From a virus: a DNA stretch of 64,000 nucleotides. Position numbers and translations under genes: made by a program. The stretch is taken from IMG/VR virus record IMGVR_UViG_3300045988_109049. One strand, given 5' to 3'. The notes beneath the pieces were generated by a model. That model saw only the letters and a list, made by a program, of their open reading frames with translations, ran no database searches and was not told where the DNA came from. Shown in pieces: positions 2,949-52,680 of the stretch (its first letter is position 1; the number at the start of each line of letters is the position of its first letter).

Positions 2949-5803
2949 TTAACTTAATAAATTTGTTGCACCACAAATACTGTCACCATTTTCATCTCTA
3001 TAATCTACATTAGGCTGAATAGACGTTACATCATTTTCTGAACCTGAGGGAATTTCAAGGGAAGAGCCATATATATCTTCATAAGCCTGTCTTAATGCAT
3101 CCTCACTAAAGGCCTCTCTGTACATTTCAGAATAAGCCAAATCCTCTTCTGTCATTTGAGGAGTTTCATAAGAAGTAACTGCTTCATCAATAACAGCATT
3201 AGGATTATAACCTTTCTTGTTCTTATCAATTACAGAAGTCATTTCACTTGCTTCCTTACCATACTCATATTCAATAAAGCTATTCTTGAATCCAAGTGGC
3301 TCAATCCTTCTATAGACGGCTACATTAGACTCTTCAACTCTATCTGCAGTTAATCTGTAATAAATATAGTTACCTTTGTTTCTTCTTGCAATGAAATCAA
3401 AGAAGTCATATACAGGACCATCAGGAGTATCTATTCTCTTCTTGATGATTTTTTTATCCCCAAAATTAGCATTTTCATCTATTACAAATGTAACTTCATC
3501 CTTAATCTCATTGTCTTCACCTATAAATGAAGTTGAGGTATCATCGGGAACTTCAGGAACAAGCTTTCTATTATCAAGGTGATTATAGATATACTGTTCA
3601 ACAAAGTTACTATAATCATCCTCAGATGTAAGGAGACTTCTCAGTGTTTCAATGTACTCTGGAACTGCATTTCTTACAGCTACAGGAGCCAAGTGAATAA
3701 ATGTGGAAGGACCAAATGCAAAGCCATTTCTGTAGAAGCTGTATCTGAATAAGTTAAGAGCAAGCTTTTGAGCTTCTGGGTTACTCATATATAATAGAGA
3801 AGTCCAGTCTCTCATATATCTTTCTCTTAGAGTGGGACTCAATTGACCAACATTCTTAAACACCACAGTGTCCACAGGATTTGTATCATTTGCCCTTATC
3901 ACTCTAAGTCTCTTAATAAACTCAAGGTCAGCTATATCCTCATTCTCTGCAACCACTTTCTTGAAGTAAGTTGGGAAATTATTGATGAAGTCCCTTCTCT
4001 TGTCAGCAGATGTAATCATCTTTGTAGGATTACCATTCTCATCTACTGAACTCCAATCAGGTTCTGCACCAAAGAAATCTGTCTTAGACATTATATAAGC
4101 AAGCAAATCATTGTGAATACTATTCATAGTCTTCACATTTAATCTACCTGTCTTTGTCATGTTTCTAAGAACATCAACTACCTCATCAAATGACTCAGTG
4201 AATTGAGGGAAATACTTGCTTAACATTCTCTCTGATTGCTTCAATCCAAGTGTGTAGAATGCCTGTAAGAAAGGCAATTTACTTGCAAGCAATTGCTCTC
4301 TTATGTTGTCAATGTCATCATTAAGAGAAATACTGTCACTGATTACACCTGCTCCTACGAGTGGAAACTTATCATTCTCCTCTATATCTTTCAAGAAGTC
4401 TTGGACCTTTTGGATTTTGAGTTTTGTATCAGCAATAGTTGGACCTGCTGCACCACCTTGAGTATCAGACCTTGTAGCTTGTACAAGTTTACCAAGACTA
4501 TCGGCAGTTCTCATGATTCTCTTAAATAGGAATCCTACAGCAACTTGCTTCTTATAGAATTCAACCTTGCTGTAATCAGAAGTCTGATTAGCACTTATGA
4601 TACCTGTCATTTCTTTTGCAATAAGAATGTTGTTCGCAAGGTCCTCAATTAAGAAATCATTGCTCTTATAATTATCATAAGTAATCTCTTCCATCATTGC
4701 AGCCTTCTTTTTGTATTCTACAAGAACTTCATCAATCACAGTGTCCTTATTTTTGCCTTCTCTACTCTCCCTAAAATAAGTCTGGGTAATATCCATAACA
4801 ATAGGTTGTGTCATAAGCAAACCTATCTCAATAGGGTTATAACCTAGTCTTGAAAGAAGCATAGAAGCATCAGCAGTGAATGTATTTTGGTTAATACCAG
4901 CCAACACAGGATCTTTCACATTATCCACAGATGCAGCCAAGAAACCTGCATTATTCTTTGATATAAACTCTTTGTCTTCATTCATAATGTTATGTAAAGA
5001 AATAAGTCTCTTCCCATTCAATATAAATGAGCCATTCTCTACATCAAGGCCTAATTCAGTATGTTGCATTAAAGCATGATTAGCATTATGATTTGCATAT
5101 ATACCTATCAGTTTTGCACCAGTCATATTCTGTTGATGAAGTTGTACTTGAGTTCTTGGAGAAATAGGGTCAAGTCTTTTCTTAGTTTTTTCAGTAAGCC
5201 TATCAAGTTCTTTTAAATCCATTGAAAGTAACTTAGTAATAATCGAGCCATCAGAAATATTTAAGTCTCTTTTTAAATCTGATTCATAGCTCGAACTAAG
5301 AATACTAATAATTCTTGCAGCTTTCTTTTGATAATCAAAACCACCTGGGTTAAGAATCTTAGAGGCTGTATCTGTATTCGTTAGAACTCCCCACATCATA
5401 TCTATCATCAAGTTGTTTCTTGCTTCAAGACTATTTTCTTGTGGAGTTTTATTAAAGTCATACTTTACTTTTCTAATCTTGTATGTATCAAGTCTGTACT
5501 TTTCCTTGTTTTCTTCAAACCATTTCTTAAACTCTACAGGTGCATTTGCAAAGTCCTCTAATAGATTTCCTGCCCTAAATAAGGTAGCTAATTCATCAAG
5601 TATTTTTTGCTCACCTTTGAAATCCTGCTTTGCTCTTCTGAAGTCAAACTTATCTACCTTGAATTCAGGAAGCATAATATACATCTTATCCACATCAAAG
5701 TCAGAACCTGACAGAGTGGTAATCTCAGCAGGAAGCATAATTGCAGAACCATTCTGTTGAGGTAAGAATCCCTTGATATACAGAGGAGCCATTGAATACT
5801 TAT
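2949..5803 (-). CDS. Giant virion-type RNA polymerase, exon 2 (C-terminal ~950 aa, carries the DxDxD metal-binding motif)
   Basis: SGSDFDVDKMY (about 5688-5702) matches the beta-prime NADFDGD-type catalytic loop. The size and position fit the crAss-like single-chain RNAP. The 5' limit is set at the inferred 3' splice site, not at the GTG at 5870 used by the ORF track. Confidence 0.65.
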
Positions 5804-6713
5804 CTTCAGTTGGTTGTTTTGTTATCTTACAGATGTTTATTCTGTAATTCTTTATGTTTCCATAAAGCACGGACTATATCTTCATCCTATAAGGATGTTG
5901 GGCACTCGTGGGTATATTATATTCTATTTTCATAGTTTCAATACCTAGTCTCTGAACCTTTTATAACCATTTAAGTTATAACTTGGCTGCTGATTGTCCC
6001 TACTTATTGAATTGTCACACACTTGCATATTCCCAGTAATAACCATATCTTTTCTGATGAGTTTTAATACCACTAATTATGTTAGCATCTTTCCTAATAT
6101 TTCCTAATTGTCTGGCAGCTTCTCTAATAGATTGGTAAGTATTTATAATATTACCATCATTATCTATTTGATTAATCTGTCTTTTATTAGGATTAGATTC
6201 TCTAAGTTTTAATCCTATTTTAACTGCTTTATTTCCATAACAGTTATTATAAGACTTAGTACACCATTCAAGATTTTCTACAGAATTATTAGTCTTATTT
6301 TCATCTTTGTGGTTTATACATTCCAAATTGTTAGGATTTGGAATAAAAGTATCAGCTACTATTCTATGTACTGCAATAGTTCTTTTCTTGTTAGTGTCAT
6401 CGTATAATTTCACTATAGGATAGCCACTACTATCAAGTACTGAGGATAAAGGTTTCAAAATGTTACCTTGCCTATAACTAAATACTTTACCACTTTTAGT
6501 TACTTTATAGCTTGGATATTCTCCAAATCTACTTTTAATATTAAATAGTTCTTCTTCCATATAATGTTTTTGTATAGATTTATATGTGCAAAGATACTAT
6601 AAATATTTGAATTATGCAAATTTTGTATCAATAATCTAACAGGATGTTCCAGCAATTCACCCAATTTATTATTCTTTAGTATTACTACTAAAGCGAGTCC
6701 CAATCTTTCGATT
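5804..6713 (-). mobile_element. Group I intron splitting the RNAP gene (boundaries +/- ~10 nt)
   Basis: Minus-strand core elements: P gaattgctggaaca (6645-6658), Q aatcagcagccaag (5982-5995), R ggttcagagacta (5946-5958), S agatatagtcc (5871-5881). These are followed by a GAAA-tetraloop hairpin (5850-5867) and a second hairpin (5827-5847). Contains an HNH ORF. Confidence 0.8.
6015..6560 (-). CDS. Intron-encoded HNH homing endonuclease
   Basis: INHKDENKTNNSVENLEWCTKSYNN is an HNH_3-type motif. The C-terminal IREAARQLG segment looks like a NUMOD/IENR-type DNA-binding repeat. The ORF lies between the P and Q elements of the intron. Confidence 0.75.
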   Translation of the reverse strand: MEEELFNIKSRFGEYPSYKVTKSGKVFSYRQGNILKPLSSVLDSSGYPIVKLYDDTNKKRTIAVHRIVADTFIPNPNNLECINHKDENKTNNSVENLEWCTKSYNNCYGNKAVKIGLKLRESNPNKRQINQIDNDGNIINTYQSIREAARQLGNIRKDANIISGIKTHQKRYGYYWEYASV

Positions 6714-9700
6714 AAACTCTATAACCAATCAACTTTCTAAGGTCTTCAGGCAACTTGTTGATGTCAAGTTCATGAGTCCCTTCCTTCATAAGAGGTTCAT
6801 AGAATTCTCTTGAATAAGCAGGCATATAACATTCGAGATATTTGATTCTCTTGTTCTCACCTTCTCCTTCAAATACCACATGAAGCTCATCAGTCAAGCC
6901 ATAATCAGATACCTGAATTAATGCTCCACCTCTAATCTTCTGCTTGGTAATTCTGCTCTTGATGATACTATTAAGAAGAGTCTGTACTCTTTGAGATTGT
7001 ACAGGATCAAATAATGGAATATTGAACTGACCATTCTCATTAAGGGTACAGGCTCTGACCATATCAATTCCATATCTCTGATTACCTCTAATCTCTTCAA
7101 GTAGTGCCTCCTCTATCTTCTTAGGGTCTTTGAATATATCATTCACATTCTTGAATGCTTGCAAGATATTCTCAGTATTGATTGCATTATACAGGTCCAG
7201 CCATTCCTGCTTGGTCATTTTCTTACCATCAACCTCAATAATAGCATCTGATGCAATATCAGCAGTAATCAACTTTCTAATCTGAGTACCTACAAGCTGC
7301 ACAGCATCAATAGCATGTTCAGGAGTTGCAGTCTGAATACCATAATCTTCATAGCTTATTTTATGTACTACATTAGGATTCTCAATACCATTAGGCATAG
7401 TAGTATTCTTCAATACCTCCTTTACTTGCCTGAAGTCACTAACCTCGTTAAGGTCAATAACACCTTGCTTCCCGACTTTAGTAGTAGATTCAAATTGAAC
7501 TACATCAATATTGTTCTCTTCCATGAATTCATTAATAGCTTTAAGCTTGCTTGATTTACTAAGTGGACCAGCTATTAACTCATGCATGGCAAGTAATAAG
7601 AATTCAGAGTTCTTATGCTGTACAGGAGTCTTAATACCAGTATGACCTTCTACACCACTCATGTTGCTAATTTGGGTATATACATAAGGTTTCTTAGTCT
7701 GCCAGATGATATTAAAGTCAGCAATGTTCCAAGTACCATTTTTGAAATTATTATATGCCTGCTCCATCTCATCTGTCCATTGGCCAGACATACCAAGTAT
7801 TGCTCTATAGGAGCTTAAACTTCTATAAGCCTGTGCATCTGCAACATTAACTGCCTTAAACTTGTTAATAATATTATCTCTATCCATCTTGGGCATTTCA
7901 CCTTTCTTAACTCTCTCATCAAGAACTGTTTCAATATCACTCAGTACTGAAGATACAACCTCATCATCCTTCAAGTAGATAGTTCTTTCCCAATCTCTAC
8001 CAATTCTTTCTCCCTTATAAGTAGCTTTGGTATTCATTCTAAGAGCTGGGGCATGAACCTCCTTATATCTCTTCTGAAAGTCCTCTACATTCTTATAGAA
8101 AGCTAAGTCGGTAGTAGTTAACTCAATAATTTGAGAAGTAGCTAATTTACTATTCCAGTAATACTCTCTTAATGCAGCTTTTGTATTATTCTTTACTATA
8201 AGGTTTTTGTTAATACTATCTGCTTCTTGTTTAGTAATATCTCCTCTTATAGACTTCTGATTTATTAAGTCTTTAATTTGTTGGAACAAATCTGTAGCAA
8301 CTCTATCATCTACTGGATTATTGTTGTTATAATCTTTCAATAACAACTCCATATCAGTAGTCCATAAAGTAGTACCAAGGATTTCTTTAGCTTTGATAAG
8401 AGACTTTGCAGTTCTTGAGTTCTGCTGTGATTGACCTGCAAAAGGTAAGTACTTATACTTTCCATTTGGTAACTCATCAAATAAACCAATTCTTGCCCAG
8501 TCTCTATATGCCTCTTCAAAGCCATTATCCATAACTTCTCTAAGAGTATCTCTAATGAATTCCTTTAACTCAGCACCACTGCCTTCCCTGCTCAATCTAC
8601 TCAATCTGTCAAGGAATGTTTCTCCATTATTATATCTAATGGAATTAAGTGCAGGTAAGAACTTAAACTCAGCTCCCCCTATACTCTTAATACTTCCATC
8701 CTTCTTCCTGGAAATATCATAGTTTGCTATAGGGGAGATGTTTGGATTATTATTCTGAAATTCCTCATCTCTTGCTCTGACAAGCATTATTCTGTCATAT
8801 TCTTGATTGACTAAATCAGTTAGTTTATCAAGGATAATATCATCATAAGTCAGCTTGTTCCCATTCTCATCATATTCAACTCCACTTACATACTTTCTGA
8901 ATCTAATGAATTCGGCAGAAGGAGAGTCTGAAAGAATAGGAACATGATACCAGGCCCACTTTACACTTGTTCTGCTGTCCTCTGGATCTCCCCAATATTC
9001 AGTAAGTAATGCTAAAGTATAGTCTAAGTCATCCCAATTAGTATAATCCACTTTATCAGAGTTCAATACTACTTTATGATTTAGGCCTCTTCTCATTTCC
9101 TCAGAGTTAACCAGTTGCTCTAACCAGTCACTTCTCCATCTCCCATCTTTAAAGAACCACTCATATTGCTTAAACTCAGTATTAATAAATTCTTCAAATC
9201 TCTTCCTATCTCCTCTTACATTCTTAAGCTGTTTAATTAACTTTCCAAGATAATTTGGGGTGACATGAGAGTAATAAGACTTATCATTCTCTCTAACACT
9301 ACTTTCAATAGCATCTTCAGTTACATTAGCCATCATATTTGCAATTGCACTATAAGCTGAACCAAATGTATTGATTAAGTCTCCTCTCTTCTCTATTCCA
9401 TCTTCTCCTGTTTCTGACTTTATTTCCCCCTTCTTGATTCCTTTGAATATAATATTCAATTGAGGTAGTAGGACCATAATAGGGTCAGTAAACTTAGCTG
9501 TATCAGAAGTTCTAATATCAGTTAGTGCATTTCTTAATATAGAGGGATTGGCATCAATACCAATCATATTCAACAGCTTTAGTATAGTTTTCCAGATCCT
9601 ATCATCCTCAAGAAGTTCTAATCTTGCTTCAGTATCCAAATTAGAGAATTTATTGTTTAGAGTTTCAACCCACTTAAGACCTTTTTCAGCATTTTCAATA

Positions 9701-11064
9701 TTTATGTCCCCATTCTTCTCATATACACTATCATTATCAAGTTGCATACCATTCTCATAGTTATCTCTCCAAGCATCAAGAAGGTAATATACACCTTCAG
9801 GCTTGTTAATAGCAATGGTTTGCATCTTGAATGTACCATCAAGCATCGTCTTTTTCTTCTGGATCCAATAGGGTATAAAATCCTTTCTAAAATCTTGATA
9901 GAACTGAGAAAATAGAGTATCATCTTTCTCAAGCAATTCTCTTACTTGAGCCACCCAGGGTTTATTCCTTTCAAGCTCCTGTATAAGAGGAATCATATCT
10001 TCAGAAGTAATCATATCTCTCAATTTATCAATAAGAGTTGCATGAACATAATCAGCATCTAAATACCTTAGATTACCCAAATCATCTTCCTCATACATTC
10101 CTTCATAGTCAAGCCTGGGTATTTCCCTAATAACTTTTCTAACTGCTTGAGATGATAATTCATGGGAACTAACTTGTCTAAAGTTAGTCATCCAGCCATC
10201 TTTAAAAGTCTCTTCCTTATTATAATCATCAGCTTGCTCATCAAGCTCACTGTATCCTTCAGGAGTATCATCATTTAAGTTAGCATCTTTAGGAGCAATA
10301 TAGTTCAAGTCAATTCTAACTCCTTCTGTCATTATGAGTAATGTGCTAGCTTCTTCTGCCAAAGGTTTAAAGTTATCAACAACTTTTCTATAAGCTTGTT
10401 CCTTATATACAGCTTTTCTTCTTGCAGCATCCAATTTTTGTTCATCAGAGAATCTTTCAGATTCATCTATAACACCCTCATCAATTAATGTCTGCTCTCT
10501 TGCATTTATTGCCCCAAGTTCAATTTGTACTCTATTCTCTTCTGTATCGTTGATATAGGATTGAAATATATCCAATACTCTATCAAATAATCCAGCAGGG
10601 GTGTATTTCTTTATGGCATCAAATCTATTAAGGGAGCTTAACTCCATCTGTAATTGTAATCTTTCTTCATCAGAAGCTGTATCCATTCTCTTATTAAGAG
10701 AATCATTCATTTCCTGTAGTGCTTTATCTACCTCATTACTAAAGAACCTTGCAATAAGACTTACTCTATCTCTTCTTGTTCTTGGATCAAAGTCTAAATC
10801 AACCTTAGCTTGTTCTTCAATAGAAGAGACCTTAGGAGCATCAAATGAAGGAGATAATGCTTCATCGAGCATCTCTACTGTATTTGCACTTCTTAGTTTA
10901 AATCTAAAATTATTAAGTTCTCTTACAGTAGGATACTCTTCAATAGATTTATTATTCTCTTTTTGCCACAAAGCTACAAGACCCTTTACAGATTCCTCTG
11001 TTTCATCTTGTAACTCCTTAGTTAGGTACCTAATCTCTTCAGTTGTTACTAAACAATTATTCAT
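6714..11064 (-). CDS. Giant virion-type RNA polymerase, exon 1 (N-terminal ~1450 aa)
   Basis: A 1450-aa ORF that ends in a stop immediately at the start of the intron sequence. It continues in frame with exon 2 after intron removal. Confidence 0.65.
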
Positions 11065-19609: not shown

Positions 19610-20473
19610 CACATATGTTACGAATATGTCGATTCCACATATTCTCTTTAGATTTCTCTAAAGGTCGGACTATATCTTATAAAAATCTCCACATATAGGC
19701 TAGTTGCCCATTGGTTAGATTTCTATCAGTGCTTTTCAGCTGCTCTTGCAGCTTACTCCATTTCTGGATAGTCTCTGAACTCCATAATTTATAAGAGTAA
19801 CAATTAATAGGATATTTAGCTAATATAGAATGAATAATATAGGCTCCCTCATATTTATTTATTCCTAAATAATATAATGGTCTGCTATGATTATTATCTA
19901 CTCTTACTTTAGCTTTTACTCCTATACTCTCAAAGAAAGGAATAAATACATTTTCTTGAATATTCAGAGAAAATTTCTGAGTATTAAGGTTGTAATATAA
20001 GTCCCTCTTATGAAGGCTCCCATCATCATAGAACCACAATGCTAAACCTAACTCATCAAGATTACTCACTACTTCTTCTATAGGGAGTTCCTTGATTAAT
20101 TTAAGTGAAAACCAAGCTCCTCCATAATAAGTATATATGGGAGTTTGGTTATAACCATTGCTGTCTACATGATTTATTTTGCCTTTACCAATTAATTGTT
20201 TTTTATACTCTAAGTATTCCTTATGCTTACAATTGGATGTATATATAGTACTACCACTATTAGTAGTAGATATGCAACCATCCCCTAATATAGCAGTAAG
20301 AAAAACCTGAGTTTGCTCTCTTGTAAAATCATAAAGCTGCTTATTGCCTATTTCTCTTAAGTTACTTAAAATCATATTTAATACTTTTACTAGTTTATTA
20401 TTACAATAATTCAGTGATTAAATCTTTAAGGGTTTCAAGCAATTAACACTGTTTTACTACAACAAAATTACTT
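19610..20473 (-). mobile_element. Group I intron in PolA motif C
   Basis: The 5' exon ends in gaT and the intron ends in G (19610). R ggagttcagagactatcc lies at about 19766-19783 and S aagatatagtcc at 19667-19678. These are followed by a GAAA hairpin, a second hairpin and cgtaacatatgtg before the splice site. Confidence 0.85.
19677..20375 (-). CDS. Intron-encoded LAGLIDADG homing endonuclease
   Basis: Two LAGLIDADG motifs: FLTAILGDGCIS and LALWFYDDGSL. The ORF 3' end runs through the R element and stops inside the S element. Confidence 0.8.
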   Translation of the reverse strand: MILSNLREIGNKQLYDFTREQTQVFLTAILGDGCISTTNSGSTIYTSNCKHKEYLEYKKQLIGKGKINHVDSNGYNQTPIYTYYGGAWFSLKLIKELPIEEVVSNLDELGLALWFYDDGSLHKRDLYYNLNTQKFSLNIQENVFIPFFESIGVKAKVRVDNNHSRPLYYLGINKYEGAYIIHSILAKYPINCYSYKLWSSETIQKWSKLQEQLKSTDRNLTNGQLAYMWRFL

Positions 20474-28954: not shown

Positions 28955-29432
28955 ACCATTTTATGGAATACCCATAAATATCTCTTAATTTTTTATCTAT
29001 TTCATCAAATAGATAATGAGGCATCTTTGTCCCACTCCTTGCAAAGTATGCAGGATGCTCAATTTTTAAAATGTGATTAAATCTTTTATTAATATATAGA
29101 TCAAATGTTTGAGCTTGCTTACCGAATAATACATATATAATGGAACAAGAACATTCAGATAGATTCTTTAATAGTTTGGCTATGAATGGTCTCCAAACCA
29201 TGACATGAGAACCTATTTTATTCATCTCCACTGTGAGGGCAGAATTAATCATTAATATACCCTGCTTGGCCCAACTCTCTAAAGTTTGGTCAAAGATAAT
29301 ATTATTGTGGGGAATTTCAAAATCTATTACTGCTTCTTTTATCACTTGAAGAGAAGGAGATAAATTCTCTTCTAAGACTTCCTTCCTATTTCCAAATAAT
29401 ACACCAGTGGCTATTCCTTTCTGGGGATAAGG
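28941..29432 (-). CDS. ung: Uracil-DNA glycosylase (family 1-like), exon 2
   Basis: PYPQKGIATGVLF completes GQD|PY. Also present: NSALTVE..GSH, LFGKQAQ and EHPAYFARSG (compare HPSPLS). Confidence 0.8.
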   Translation of the reverse strand, partial: PYPQKGIATGVLFGNRKEVLEENLSPSLQVIKEAVIDFEIPHNNIIFDQTLESWAKQGILMINSALTVEMNKIGSHVMVWRPFIAKLLKNLSECSCSIIYVLFGKQAQTFDLYINKRFNHILKIEHPAYFARSGTKMPHYLFDEIDKKLRDIYGYSIKWYEEY

Positions 29433-30366
29433 CAATTTGTTACCCTAACAGCTCTTTATCTGTTAGTTCTATATGTTACCATATAGTTCGGACTATATCT
29501 TCATTGTTTACAATGCAGGGCACTCGTGTCAGGTTTATTATTTGAGCTATTCACCTGTTAGTCTCTGAACCTTCTACATACTTTTATGCTCTTCTGTAGC
29601 TTGGCTGCTGATTGACTCATTAAGTTGTTCCAGCAATTCACCCTGTTTATCCAGAACCCTTCTTTTACTATAAGTAATTAATTTATACTGCATAGATGGA
29701 ATAACAAAATCTTTAATCAGCTCTACAAATTTAGGAAAATCCTTAGCTTGCAGATACATACTATTATCATGCTTGCCTACAGTAAAATGTAAATCAAATT
29801 TATCTAATAATATATTAGCTAATAAAGATTGTTCTTCTAAAGTAAAAGAACAAGTAGATAAGATACATGAATTTTTAGTTACATAACCATCGTCCATATA
29901 CCATATAGCTAAACCTAAAGTATCCATATCTTTTACAAATTCTTCAAAAACTCTTTTATGACCATTAGAATCATAGTATTTTAATCTTATATTTGTAAAG
30001 ATAGGATGTAATCTAGATTTAAATCTATACCCTACTAATTCGTGTGAATATCTTTTATTATTTATATGATACTCAACTATAGGAGATACTAAATTATACT
30101 TATTTAGTATATTCCATTTATACTCAAGATATTCTTTTTGTTTTTCAGAATGTGCTATACTAAGACACATATTCTTAGTTTTACTTCCTACTGAACAAAA
30201 ACATCCATCTCCTAATAAACTTCCTATAAGAAGTTGTTTTAAGTCATTACCCATTTCTAAATCTTTATGATTCTTCATACTATCAAAATTTTTAATAGTA
30301 CAAAGATAAGGTATTTGACCTAATATTACAATACTTTAAGTAAATTATTTATAGTTACTTATTAAA
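29433..30366 (-). mobile_element. Group I intron in the UDG catalytic GQDPY motif
   Basis: The 5' exon ends in gaT (30367) and the intron ends in aaattG (29433). Q caatcagcagccaag lies at 29600-29613, R ggttcagagacta at 29559-29571 and S aagatatagtc at 29491-29501. These are followed by a GUAA hairpin, a second hairpin and ggtaacaaattg. Confidence 0.85.
29574..30278 (-). CDS. Intron-encoded LAGLIDADG homing endonuclease
   Basis: LLIGSLLGDGCF and LAIWYMDDGYV are the two LAGLIDADG motifs. Confidence 0.8.
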   Translation of the reverse strand: MKNHKDLEMGNDLKQLLIGSLLGDGCFCSVGSKTKNMCLSIAHSEKQKEYLEYKWNILNKYNLVSPIVEYHINNKRYSHELVGYRFKSRLHPIFTNIRLKYYDSNGHKRVFEEFVKDMDTLGLAIWYMDDGYVTKNSCILSTCSFTLEEQSLLANILLDKFDLHFTVGKHDNSMYLQAKDFPKFVELIKDFVIPSMQYKLITYSKRRVLDKQGELLEQLNESISSQATEEHKSM

Positions 30367-46100: not shown

Positions 46101-46661
46101 ATGGAGTTATACAAACAGAAAAGAAAACTAGTAACTGTCACTTGTGATTACTGTAGAGAGAGTTTCTCTAAACCAGAATCAGAGTATAAAAGAAATATTA
46201 AATTAGGCAGACATAACTTTTGTTCAAGGTCTTGTTGCGGTAAATACATTGCATCTCTCAACAAGCCTCTTACTCAAGCTCAAATAGGGTCTAGAAACTC
46301 TATAAGAAACTATAGTAGTAATAGAAATGATGAGTACACACCATTTAGAGAAATTCTAAGAACCGTAAGAAACAGGTGTAAAGAATTTAATCTAGATTTA
46401 CCTTATCTTGTGGAACTTTGGAACTCACAAAATGGTATTTGTCCTTATACAAGACTTAAACTTGTTTTACCTACTTGGAATACTAATCCTGACATAAGAT
46501 ATAGAGCTTCACTTGACAGAATAGATTCTTCTAAAGGATATATTAAAGGTAACGTGCAATTTGTTGCGACTCCTATCAATTATCTTAAAGGAACTATGTC
46601 AGATGAGACTACTAAAGCTTATCTCAGAGAAATTGCCGCTTCTATTTTCATAGAAGATTAG
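46101..46661 (+). CDS. Free-standing HNH endonuclease on the opposite strand to all neighbours
   Basis: GICPYTRLKL...ASLDRIDSSKGYIKGNVQFVATPINYLKG is an HNH core. There is an N-terminal CxxC...C..CC zinc-finger-like region. A TAacTTTG box lies about 25 nt upstream. Confidence 0.65.
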   Translation: MELYKQKRKLVTVTCDYCRESFSKPESEYKRNIKLGRHNFCSRSCCGKYIASLNKPLTQAQIGSRNSIRNYSSNRNDEYTPFREILRTVRNRCKEFNLDLPYLVELWNSQNGICPYTRLKLVLPTWNTNPDIRYRASLDRIDSSKGYIKGNVQFVATPINYLKGTMSDETTKAYLREIAASIFIED

Positions 46662-46900
46662 ACTATATCATCACCTCAATAATTTGAGGGTAGGACGCTC
46701 AAGCTGGTAATTAAGGAGACTGTACTCCTCCAGTAGTCGTTGCACTTTCATTAGGTGTACCTAATGCTTAGCTCAGGATTGGCATGATAAAAGCTAGTTC
46801 TGAGCTTTTATTTTAGCGTTCCCTGAGTTCATCCTATTTTGTAAATACTATCACTAGTAAGCGGGTCCGAACTTAAACCCTCGTCTTACTAACTTTTAAT
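46600..46900 (-). ncRNA. ORF-less group I intron-like ribozyme core without identifiable coding exons
   Basis: Minus-strand elements: P gaactcaggg (46821-46830), P5 hairpin (about 46788-46810), Q aatcctgagc (46771-46780), P6 hairpin (46750-46765), R caacgactac (46733-46742), S gatatagtc (46661-46669), GAAA hairpin (46639-46656). P and Q pair perfectly (CUCAGG/CCUGAG). The ends are not defined. Confidence 0.6.
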
Positions 46901-47732
46901 AAAAGAATTTCACATGTTTACCACTTTGATATGTAGTAGGTTCTCTACTGGGGTCAACCGATAGTTGACAGATCCACCACTCTATTTAATCTAATAGAGA
47001 AATCTTCATAAGGAGTTATAAGAATTAAAATTGAAGGGTCACACCCTCTGCATACACCAGGCAGCTTGCTCCTAACTAATAAACAAACTATATATAATAT
47101 TAAAGGTGTATTGAAAGTAGGTATAGCCTTATTAACTTCCTTCTTGACCCTATTATTCACCTTTCTGTTTCCAAGCAGGTGAGGCTCAGCCTACAAGTTA
47201 GGCGGCAGCTCTATAAGTGTTGCCAGTTAAAGTTTTGATGTCTTTCCATCAGTCTTTACATGTTCTCTTACCAAATAATTAGCAATCAAAACCAAATCAT
47301 GCCCCATATTATAGTGGAAGAAGTTGTTAATACTGATTTTTTTTTGCTGTATGTAACATCTTCTTCCACCTATAGTCAATCTCTTTTCATTTTTCTTACT
47401 TTCTTTCCAGATTTCATTTTCTCTGTCTTTTTCACCTGGAGTTCTTCATTACTGTAATCATTAATATTTATTCTTTTCATTTTTCTATTTCGTCTTACTG
47501 AAAAATAACTTGAATATTGTTTTCCAAATACCGGATCTTTGTTTCTCAGGCTGTTGAGTGTTCTCCATTGCAGTCTTTCTGTTATAGTTTACACTCTTCT
47601 TCCCTACTGTGATAAAGACAGTATTTGTCTTGTCATTTGAGTCTTTCCTAGATAGGGCTGTCTTCTTCCTTAGTAAATCTTCTTTTAGTTGTCATTTTCT
47701 TTAGAATTGGTTAAAAATATAAATAGTTATAG

Positions 47733-47804
47733 TGGCTCCTCCCAGATTCGAACTGGGATTAGAGGCTTAGAAGGCCACTGTTCTTTCCATTGAACTAAGG
47801 AGTC
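47733..47804 (-). tRNA. tRNA-Arg (anticodon UCU)
   Basis: Hand-folded cloverleaf. Acceptor GACUCCU/AGGAGCC has one A-C mismatch. D arm GUUC/GAAC. Anticodon loop CUUCUAA. T arm CCCAG-UUCGAAU-CUGGG. No encoded CCA. Confidence 0.7.
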
Positions 47805-47959
47805 TTTTAAAAATGATAGTCTATTCCTATCAGTCAAATAAACAAAAATCTTTATTGAATCTGAGAAAGGTATAAGTGTTTTGCTATACGTATAATTGCT
47901 ATTGAACCTATATTACTCCTATCTTTCATGGGCTTTTTGTATTATTATGATTTCCTGCG

Positions 47960-48031
47960 CACTCCTAATAGGAATCGAACCTATATCTACTCTCTAGAAG
48001 AGAATTGTTCTATACATTGAACTATAAGAGT
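47960..48031 (-). tRNA. tRNA, best fold gives anticodon UCU (Arg)
   Basis: Acceptor ACUCUUA/UAGGAGU, D arm GUUC/GAAC, anticodon stem AUUCU/AGAGU with loop CUUCUAG, T arm AUAGG-UUCGAUU-CCUAU. Confidence 0.6.
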
Positions 48032-52576: not shown

Positions 52577-52680
52577 TATATTTTGCTCCCTTCTTCCAAT
52601 GATTAGGAAATCAGTTTTGTACTCTGAGAATAAAGGTTTGAATCCTTTAGGGAGCTCTAAACTTTAATAGTTTACAAATA

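Follow-up and report, generated by a model that had tools for sequence, protein, structure and literature searches.

Where does a group I intron end, and how are its exons joined, when its last nucleotide is not the G that such introns are expected to carry? The question is raised by the RNA polymerase (RNAP) locus of a Mahlunavirus-like crAss phage of the Steigviridae, contained in a viral sequence of 64,000 nucleotides (IMG/VR record IMGVR_UViG_3300045988_109049, hereafter the window). On the minus strand, a group I intron lies between two giant open reading frames (ORFs) of 1450 aa (11064..6712) and 973 aa (5870..2949). An initial annotation had read the two ORFs as a single RNAP gene split by an HNH-bearing group I intron that runs into the downstream called ORF, and Rfam, homologues and matches to Pfam and PDB entry 1U3E all bear this out. 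The extent it gave to the intron, 6726..5804, does not agree with the homologue alignments, which yield 6714..5814. We propose that the RNAP gene is interrupted by a mobile IA-type intron (6714..5814) with an I-HmuI-like HNH gene, and that this intron probably joins U6715 to C5813 and ends at a terminal A, A5814.

The boundaries come from relatives that lack the intron. In the closest annotated phage, cr128_1 (Mahlunavirus rarus, Steigviridae, 91.5% identity), the RNAP is one uninterrupted 'putative RNA polymerase' of 2431 aa, and the uninterrupted proteins of relatives are annotated at 2401-2431 aa. The cr128_1 DNA aligns to 7299..6715 and then to 5813..5302, contiguously on the cr128_1 side, where it reads LIGYRVPTEDKYSMAPLY across the site (DNA ...RKLIGYRVPTEDKYSMAPLYIKGF...); the alignments of cr85_1 and of Kehishuvirus 'tikkala' stop at the same site (6715/6716). 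Because the intron-less homologues run without a gap from 6715 to 5813, the insert, absent from all three, is 6714..5814, a 901-nt intron that starts with UAAUCG (an in-frame stop) and ends in ...GAUAACAAAACAA. The intron-less insertion site is ...TATAGAGTT/CCAACTGAAG... (here and below a slash within a sequence marks a junction), and the boundaries cannot be slid because the flanking bases differ (T against C and T against A). Exon 1 (6715..11064, 1450 codons) ends in ...LIGYRV, its last base being U6715 (the U at -1), as defined by the ORF list and the homologue alignments. Exon 2 (2949..5813) starts with PTEDKYSMAPLY, and joining 6715 to 5813 gives an open product of 2404 aa, without internal stop, that reads ...LIGYRV/PTEDKYSMAPLY... 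across the junction. The initial annotation had proposed aligning the spliced product to uninterrupted crAss-like RNAPs; run here, this comparison places the junction at 6715/5813 and not at 5804.

The joined protein has the features of a crAss-type virion RNAP, namely a single chain, homology to gp66 of phi14:2 and a GSDFDVDKMY catalytic loop (DxDxD). The solved phi14:2 gp66 structure (6VR4) aligns across the junction (E=1e-20, IGYRIPNQ...GSDFDIDKMY), which places the insertion between the Val/Ile and the Pro of a conserved GYR(V/I)P motif. The intron does lie upstream of DFDVD, as first noted, at 37 codons from the junction rather than the approximately 30 originally counted. In the called ORF 2949..5870, the first 19 codons (MLYGNIKNYRINICKITKQ) are intron RNA, corresponding to P9, P9.1 and the 3' tail.

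The ribozyme itself is well defined. Rfam model RF00028 (Intron_gpI) matches 6093..5850 with 54.4 bits (gathering score 50, E=4.8e-11) and scores 77.8 and 100 bits on two ORF-less relatives, L010 and L014. According to the Rfam match and to covariation, the group I core (P3-P8 with elements P, Q, R and S) is present; elements R (GTTCAGAGACTA) and S (AGATATAGTC), both quoted in the initial annotation, lie at 5957-5946 and 5881-5872. A fold comprising P1, P2, P3-P9, P7.1/7.2, P9.1 and P9.0 was drawn by hand on the window sequence, and its pairs were counted in alignment A1, which comprises 13 distinct relatives trimmed of the ORF loop. Standard pairs form in 96.3% of cells, versus 89.1% in shuffled alignments and 35-45% in slid registers, and 34 pairs have changed on both sides, versus 16.3 +/- 2.5 in shuffles (0 of 500 reach 34) and 3-9 in slid registers. 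Such double changes affect five of the eight pairs of P2 (6674..6693, GUAA loop), four of five in P7.1 and two of four in P7.2 (both within 5911..5945), two of seven in P9 (5850..5867) and four of seven in P9.1 (5827..5847). The GAAA-capped hairpin and the second hairpin predicted at 5867-5850 and 5847-5827 thus exist as P9 and P9.1, and P9.1 evolves by RNA-compensatory, not codon-like, changes. Since the extra helices P7.1 and P7.2 lie between P7 and P3', the intron is of IA type (IA2-like), an assignment that was made from these helices and not with a formal subgroup classifier. The 5' strand of P7, GAGACUA (5946..5952, within R), faces UAGUCC (5871..5876, within S), and both strands are invariant in all 13 sequences. 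The candidate guanosine pocket, G5950-C5872 with bulged A5951, is equally invariant (13/13); by analogy with G264-C311 of Tetrahymena, we take G5950-C5872 to be the guanosine-binding pair. A segment UGUUA (6641-6637) was considered as a partner of the tail motif GAUAACA and rejected, the pairing being broken in two relatives (L006 and L008) and the segment absent in L014.

Both splice sites can be placed on this fold. In P1 (6695..6719), exon nucleotides GAGUU (6719-6715) pair with a guide made of GACUC and the wobble G (6699-6695), and the inner stem (6714-6700) is closed by a GAAA loop. The pair G6717-C6697 is GC in ten of the 13 relatives, GU in one and AU in two (L010, and L017 with its identical copy L018); this covariation fixes the register of P1, with U6715 opposite G6699, so that the U.G wobble characteristic of a 5' splice site is found exactly at the exon end given by homology. 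Adjoining P1, a P10 guide UUGG (6700..6703) pairs with CCAA (5813-5810), the first four bases of exon 2; the pairing holds in 11/13 sequences at +1 and in 13/13 at +2 to +4. The L014/L020 lineage, whose guide reads GUUGA, has lost the +1 pair and pairs positions +2 to +5 instead (CAAC with GUUG), P10 being retained in the two lineages through different pairs. As P10 lies directly 5' of the wobble G in the guide, both exons are held end to end on one continuous guide. Taken together, P1, P10 and P9.0 (see below) are paired in 96% of cells, against 22-48% in slid registers.

The 3' end so defined is unusual. The intron ends in ...CAA, its last nucleotide being A5814 and not G, and the terminal omega-G expected of group I introns is therefore absent; omega-G is near-universal in these introns, though not absolute. 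By three pattern scans (IMG/VR twice, metagenome contigs once), the intron was found at this site in 48 more crAss-like contigs, each about 95-100 kb long, which makes 49 copies with that of the window. The exons of these contigs, which come from many samples, diverge to about 80% identity. In all 49, the intron ends in GAUAACA-NNN-CAA and CAA precedes CCAAC, the three variable nucleotides being AAA (23 copies), UAA (9), AUA (9), CAA (5) or AAU, UCA and UUA (one each); a J7/9 of GUG and a spacing of 57 nt from S to the exon are likewise common to 49/49. In the window, the tail (5814..5826) reads GAUAACA-AAA-CAA, with C5816-A5815 pairing to U5869-G5868 (P9.0) and A5814 in the omega position.

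Paralogous introns provide an independent test of this position. Two more group I introns on the minus strand of the window interrupt the genes for DNA polymerase I (PolA; 19610-20473) and uracil-DNA glycosylase (UDG; 29433-30366). They share the P9/P9.1/(G/C)GUAACA-tail layout of the RNAP intron, yet end in G. The PolA junction, TVTPYD/EINCEAPEE, is colinear with the uninterrupted PolA of crAss001 and cr112_1 and sets omega-G at G19610; at the UDG junction, GQD/PYPQKG, the cr128_1 UDG match begins exactly at 29432, omega-G being G29433. The shared tail that had been attributed to three sister introns is thus found at ~19.6 kb and ~29.4 kb; the third element, at 46.6 kb, lacks the P9/P9.1/GUAACA layout. 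We compared positions 2-3 of J7/9 with the two bases before omega in four introns: AC faces GU in PolA, AA faces UU in UDG, UG faces CA in the RNAP intron, and AU faces AU in a second RNAP intron carried by L010. This paralogue-level covariation of P9.0 independently sets the omega of the RNAP intron at A5814, and we place omega there because homology, P10 and P9.0 all agree. Finally, in the scan that left the exon unconstrained, codons of the PTED region vary solely at third positions (ACT/ACG/ACA, GAA/GAG, GAT/GAC), which indicates that the first codons of exon 2 behave as translated sequence. Exon 2 of L010 also shows a serine switch, TCA to AGT.

The boundaries relative to intron-less alleles, the covarying fold, the register of P1 and the terminal A common to all copies are thus direct observations, from which we infer both splicing itself and the role of A5814 as the leaving nucleotide in place of omega-G. 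In the mechanism that we propose, an exogenous guanosine bound in the G-C pocket of P7 would attack after U6715, held by its U.G wobble with G6699. The freed 3'-OH of U6715 would then attack the A5814-C5813 bond, which would be positioned by P10 (CCAA with UUGG, stacked on P1) and by P9.0 (CA with UG). The product would read ...AGAGUU/CCAACU... and encode the RNAP of 2404 aa.

Several points weigh against this proposal. A terminal A should be a poor ligand for a canonical G-C pocket, and the P7 binding pair is unchanged, indeed invariant, in the RNAP intron despite its terminal A; ligation would then be slow or dependent on something else. In Tetrahymena, a change of omega-G to A reportedly prevents the exons from being ligated, unless the binding pair is altered as well (Been and Perrotta, 1991). 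Within the family, P9.0 and P10 vary little or not at all, and the support they give consists of the paralogue comparison and of the slid-register controls rather than of within-family covariation. Moreover, two of the three scans demanded CCAACNGARGAYAA directly after a gap of 42-72 nt and would have missed any other exon-2 start.

The foremost alternative, which we consider unlikely, is that ligation fails or is not needed: the N-terminal part of the RNAP would end at the UAA at 6714-6712, the C-terminal part would be re-initiated and the two halves would assemble. The missing omega-G should indeed cripple the second splicing step, an in-frame stop stands at the very start of the intron, and a split enzyme is conceivable, cellular RNAPs holding their two DPBB domains on separate subunits. 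However, PTED has no conserved start codon ahead of it: in 9/49 copies an in-frame TAA comes after the GUG at 5870, and L010 lacks the Met of KYSM. The translated behaviour of the PTED codons argues in the same direction, the break would fall inside the conserved GYRVP motif, and the compensatory upkeep of P1, P10 and the whole ribozyme would be hard to explain if ligation were irrelevant.

A conventional terminal G could also be sought nearby. We enumerated the G-ending 3' sites 5850, 5826, 5807 and 5804, each with the U-ending 5' exons 6716, 6715, 6714 and 6723; G5807 was discarded because it gives UAA or UAG. Use of G5826 (after P9.1) or G5850 (after P9), which would insert 4 aa (ITKQ) or 12 aa in frame into the RNAP, is improbable. 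Joined to U6715, both sites keep an open frame in the window, contrary to the earlier statement that only 5804 restores the frame; G5826 is invariant in 49/49 copies, the Rfam model alignment ends at G5850, and either G could be a minor cryptic site. Nevertheless, with these sites 9/49 copies have a stop within the tail (AUA ACA UAA CAA), and in most of those nine genomes the RNAP exons are otherwise long and open. Where the end of exon 2 is in view it is TAA, a codon that therefore truly acts as a stop in these phages, so that the nine tails argue for excluding both G5826 and G5850. In addition, P9.1 evolves as RNA, the intron-less alleles and 6VR4 have no insertion at this place, in the paralogous introns this hairpin and tail are part of the intron, and neither G can form P10.

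Still less credible is the site put forward in the initial annotation, omega-G at 5804 with a 5' exon ending at U6714 or U6723 (LIGYRVY/KYSM or LIGY/KYSM). This arrangement has a terminal G, a U-ending 5' exon and an intact frame, but it deletes PTED or RVPTED, which the uninterrupted homologues keep (homology gives LIGYRV/PTEDKYSM) and whose Pro is conserved in phi14:2 gp66. The PTED codons of intron-bearing alleles vary at third positions only, a 3' exon starting AUAAGU is unable to form P10, the P9.0 covariation among paralogues contradicts the site, and the U6723 option conflicts with the covariation-supported P1. The site was misplaced because a terminal G was assumed to exist. As for the idea that the terminal A reflects faulty assembly or sequencing, or a mutation that recently inactivated an intron in decay, prior expectation alone speaks for it, and it can practically be dismissed given an identical CAA end in 49 independent contigs with exons at ~80% identity and a covarying ribozyme.

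Splicing at A5814 thus stands as the preferred reading, and the intron shows signs of mobility. An ORF of 181 aa (6015..6560, minus strand) occupies the P5 extension loop, its last codons overlapping the 3' strand of P5b. It matches Pfam HNH_3 above the cut-off (4e-8, 33 bits) and an I-HmuI_NUMOD-like tail below it (19.6 bits), and I-HmuI (PDB 1U3E, E=2.7e-12) matches over the full length (residues 16-176); the intron ORF is a predicted nuclease, a homing endonuclease of I-HmuI type. It is missing in the lineages of L010 and L014, whose introns, of 318 and 260 nt, retain the ribozyme. In the truncated locus of L019, a different ORF is located ~350 nt upstream of S, at the P7.1/7.2 position (between P7 and P3'); it replaces or adds to the HNH gene of P5, which suggests ORF swapping within one intron backbone. 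Among INPHARED phage records the intron was absent at this site in all, and similarity to the HNH gene alone was found.

Two further observations concern the relatives. In some of them, a second group I intron interrupts the RNAP gene ~42 codons downstream of the first (L010, 2675-2951, minus strand; also L005, 2136-2281). In L010 it lies inside the catalytic motif, GSDFD/VDKEY, scores 83.8 bits and has a canonical omega-G, and the N-terminal half of the catalytic loop is consequently encoded on an exon of ~125 nt between two introns. One metagenome contig, L024, has a frame-breaking deletion ~18 nt into exon 2 (CCAACTGAGGATAAGTAT then CATGCTTCC...), which is probably an assembly artefact or the mark of a defective genome.

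Rfam did not report the PolA intron (~19.7 kb) even at E<=1; copies of R and S at 19.7 kb reveal it. A LAGLIDADG_2 ORF (20375-19677) reads through its ribozyme core up to element S. The intron, also present in cr128_1, has canonical ends (U at -1 and the omega-G) and contiguous P1 (CUACGAU with GUUGUAG) and P10 (GAAAU with AUUUU) helices. The UDG intron, which splits a GQD/PY motif, contains a LAGLIDADG_2 ORF (30278-29574, 1.9e-33) and appears to be missing from the cr128_1 UDG gene; P1 and P10 were sought by eye, and no convincing P10 was seen. Intron_gpI matches the window at 29.5 kb, in this intron, and at 46.7 kb, with 86 bits each. The latter element (46639-46908, minus strand) has no minus-strand ORF of at least 80 aa on either side and overlaps the end of an opposite-strand ORF of 186 aa (46101-46661, weak zf-FCS match); cr128_1 has it at 98.8% identity, in a region whose only annotations are hypothetical protein or endonuclease. 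The phage also carries two tRNA-Arg(TCT) genes (47732-47804 and 47959-48031, minus strand) and a third tRNA gene (52585-52656, plus strand).

Group I introns that bear an HNH gene and interrupt phage genes at conserved motifs are a classical finding. I-HmuI, I-HmuII, I-BasI and I-PfoP3I are listed among the HNH endonucleases of introns in phage DNA polymerase genes (PMC3428280). Like the IA2-type introns in the DNA polymerase genes of Bacillus phages SPO1/SP82 (I-HmuI/I-HmuII) and of cyanophage Pf-WMP3 (I-PfoP3I, PMC3428280), the RNAP intron cuts a protein gene at a highly conserved motif and combines an IA core with P7.1/P7.2, an HNH ORF in a peripheral loop with homology to I-HmuI, a P1 with a U.G wobble and a P10 of 4 bp. 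It differs from them in its host gene, a crAss single-chain virion RNAP, in the location of the ORF in a P5 extension and in the terminal A. The intron, its HNH gene and the overlap with a called ORF are thus real and in themselves ordinary; the conserved terminal A is the notable part. If A5814 acts as the leaving nucleotide, the RNAP intron would be a natural omega-A intron. A precedent is the 23S rRNA intron Cbu.L1917 of Coxiella burnetii (Raghavan et al.), which, in the words of the title cited in PMC3428280, 'lacks the canonical Omega G' and which belongs to subgroup IB2 (PMC10136302). It too is a natural, reportedly self-splicing group I intron with a non-G 3' end; unlike the RNAP intron, it interrupts a bacterial rRNA gene, is of another subgroup, lacks an HNH ORF and is known from a single lineage. 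Its 3'-terminal nucleotide is said to be A. In contrast, the non-G end described here occurs in at least 49 phage contigs, in a protein gene and next to omega-G paralogues in the same genome.

Within the crAss phages, the intron passages of Yutin et al. 2021 (PMC7886860) describe a dense population of introns, mainly in the Delta and Zeta groups, and an alpha-gamma assemblage without mobile-element insertions; these passages do not mention a terminal A. As in that account, putatively self-splicing introns with predicted homing endonucleases are found here in core genes of Crassvirales, including the transcription block; in contrast to it, at least three introns (in RNAP, PolA and UDG) occur in a phage of the Steigviridae, the family of crAss001.

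The finding has consequences for annotation, as the RNAP of these abundant gut phages is to be joined at LIGYRV/PTED: ORF calling extends the downstream frame by 19 spurious codons that derive from the intron, and a splice-site search bound to a terminal G would put the junction in the wrong place. It also sets a non-G terminus in 49 independent copies against an omega-G treated as essentially universal. If true, the RNAP intron and its omega-G sister introns would form a natural matched system for the second splicing step within one genome, and these paralogues together with the 260-nt ORF-less intron of L014 make a second step without omega-G directly testable. Steigviridae crAss phages are also shown to harbour several mobile introns in core genes. 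We also favour, if less firmly than the junction itself, the view that a widespread phage lineage splices an essential gene without omega-G, by means of a conserved A, an unchanged pocket and a 3' choice made by P9.0 and P10 alone. Slow exon ligation may then act as a throttle on the production of virion RNAP.

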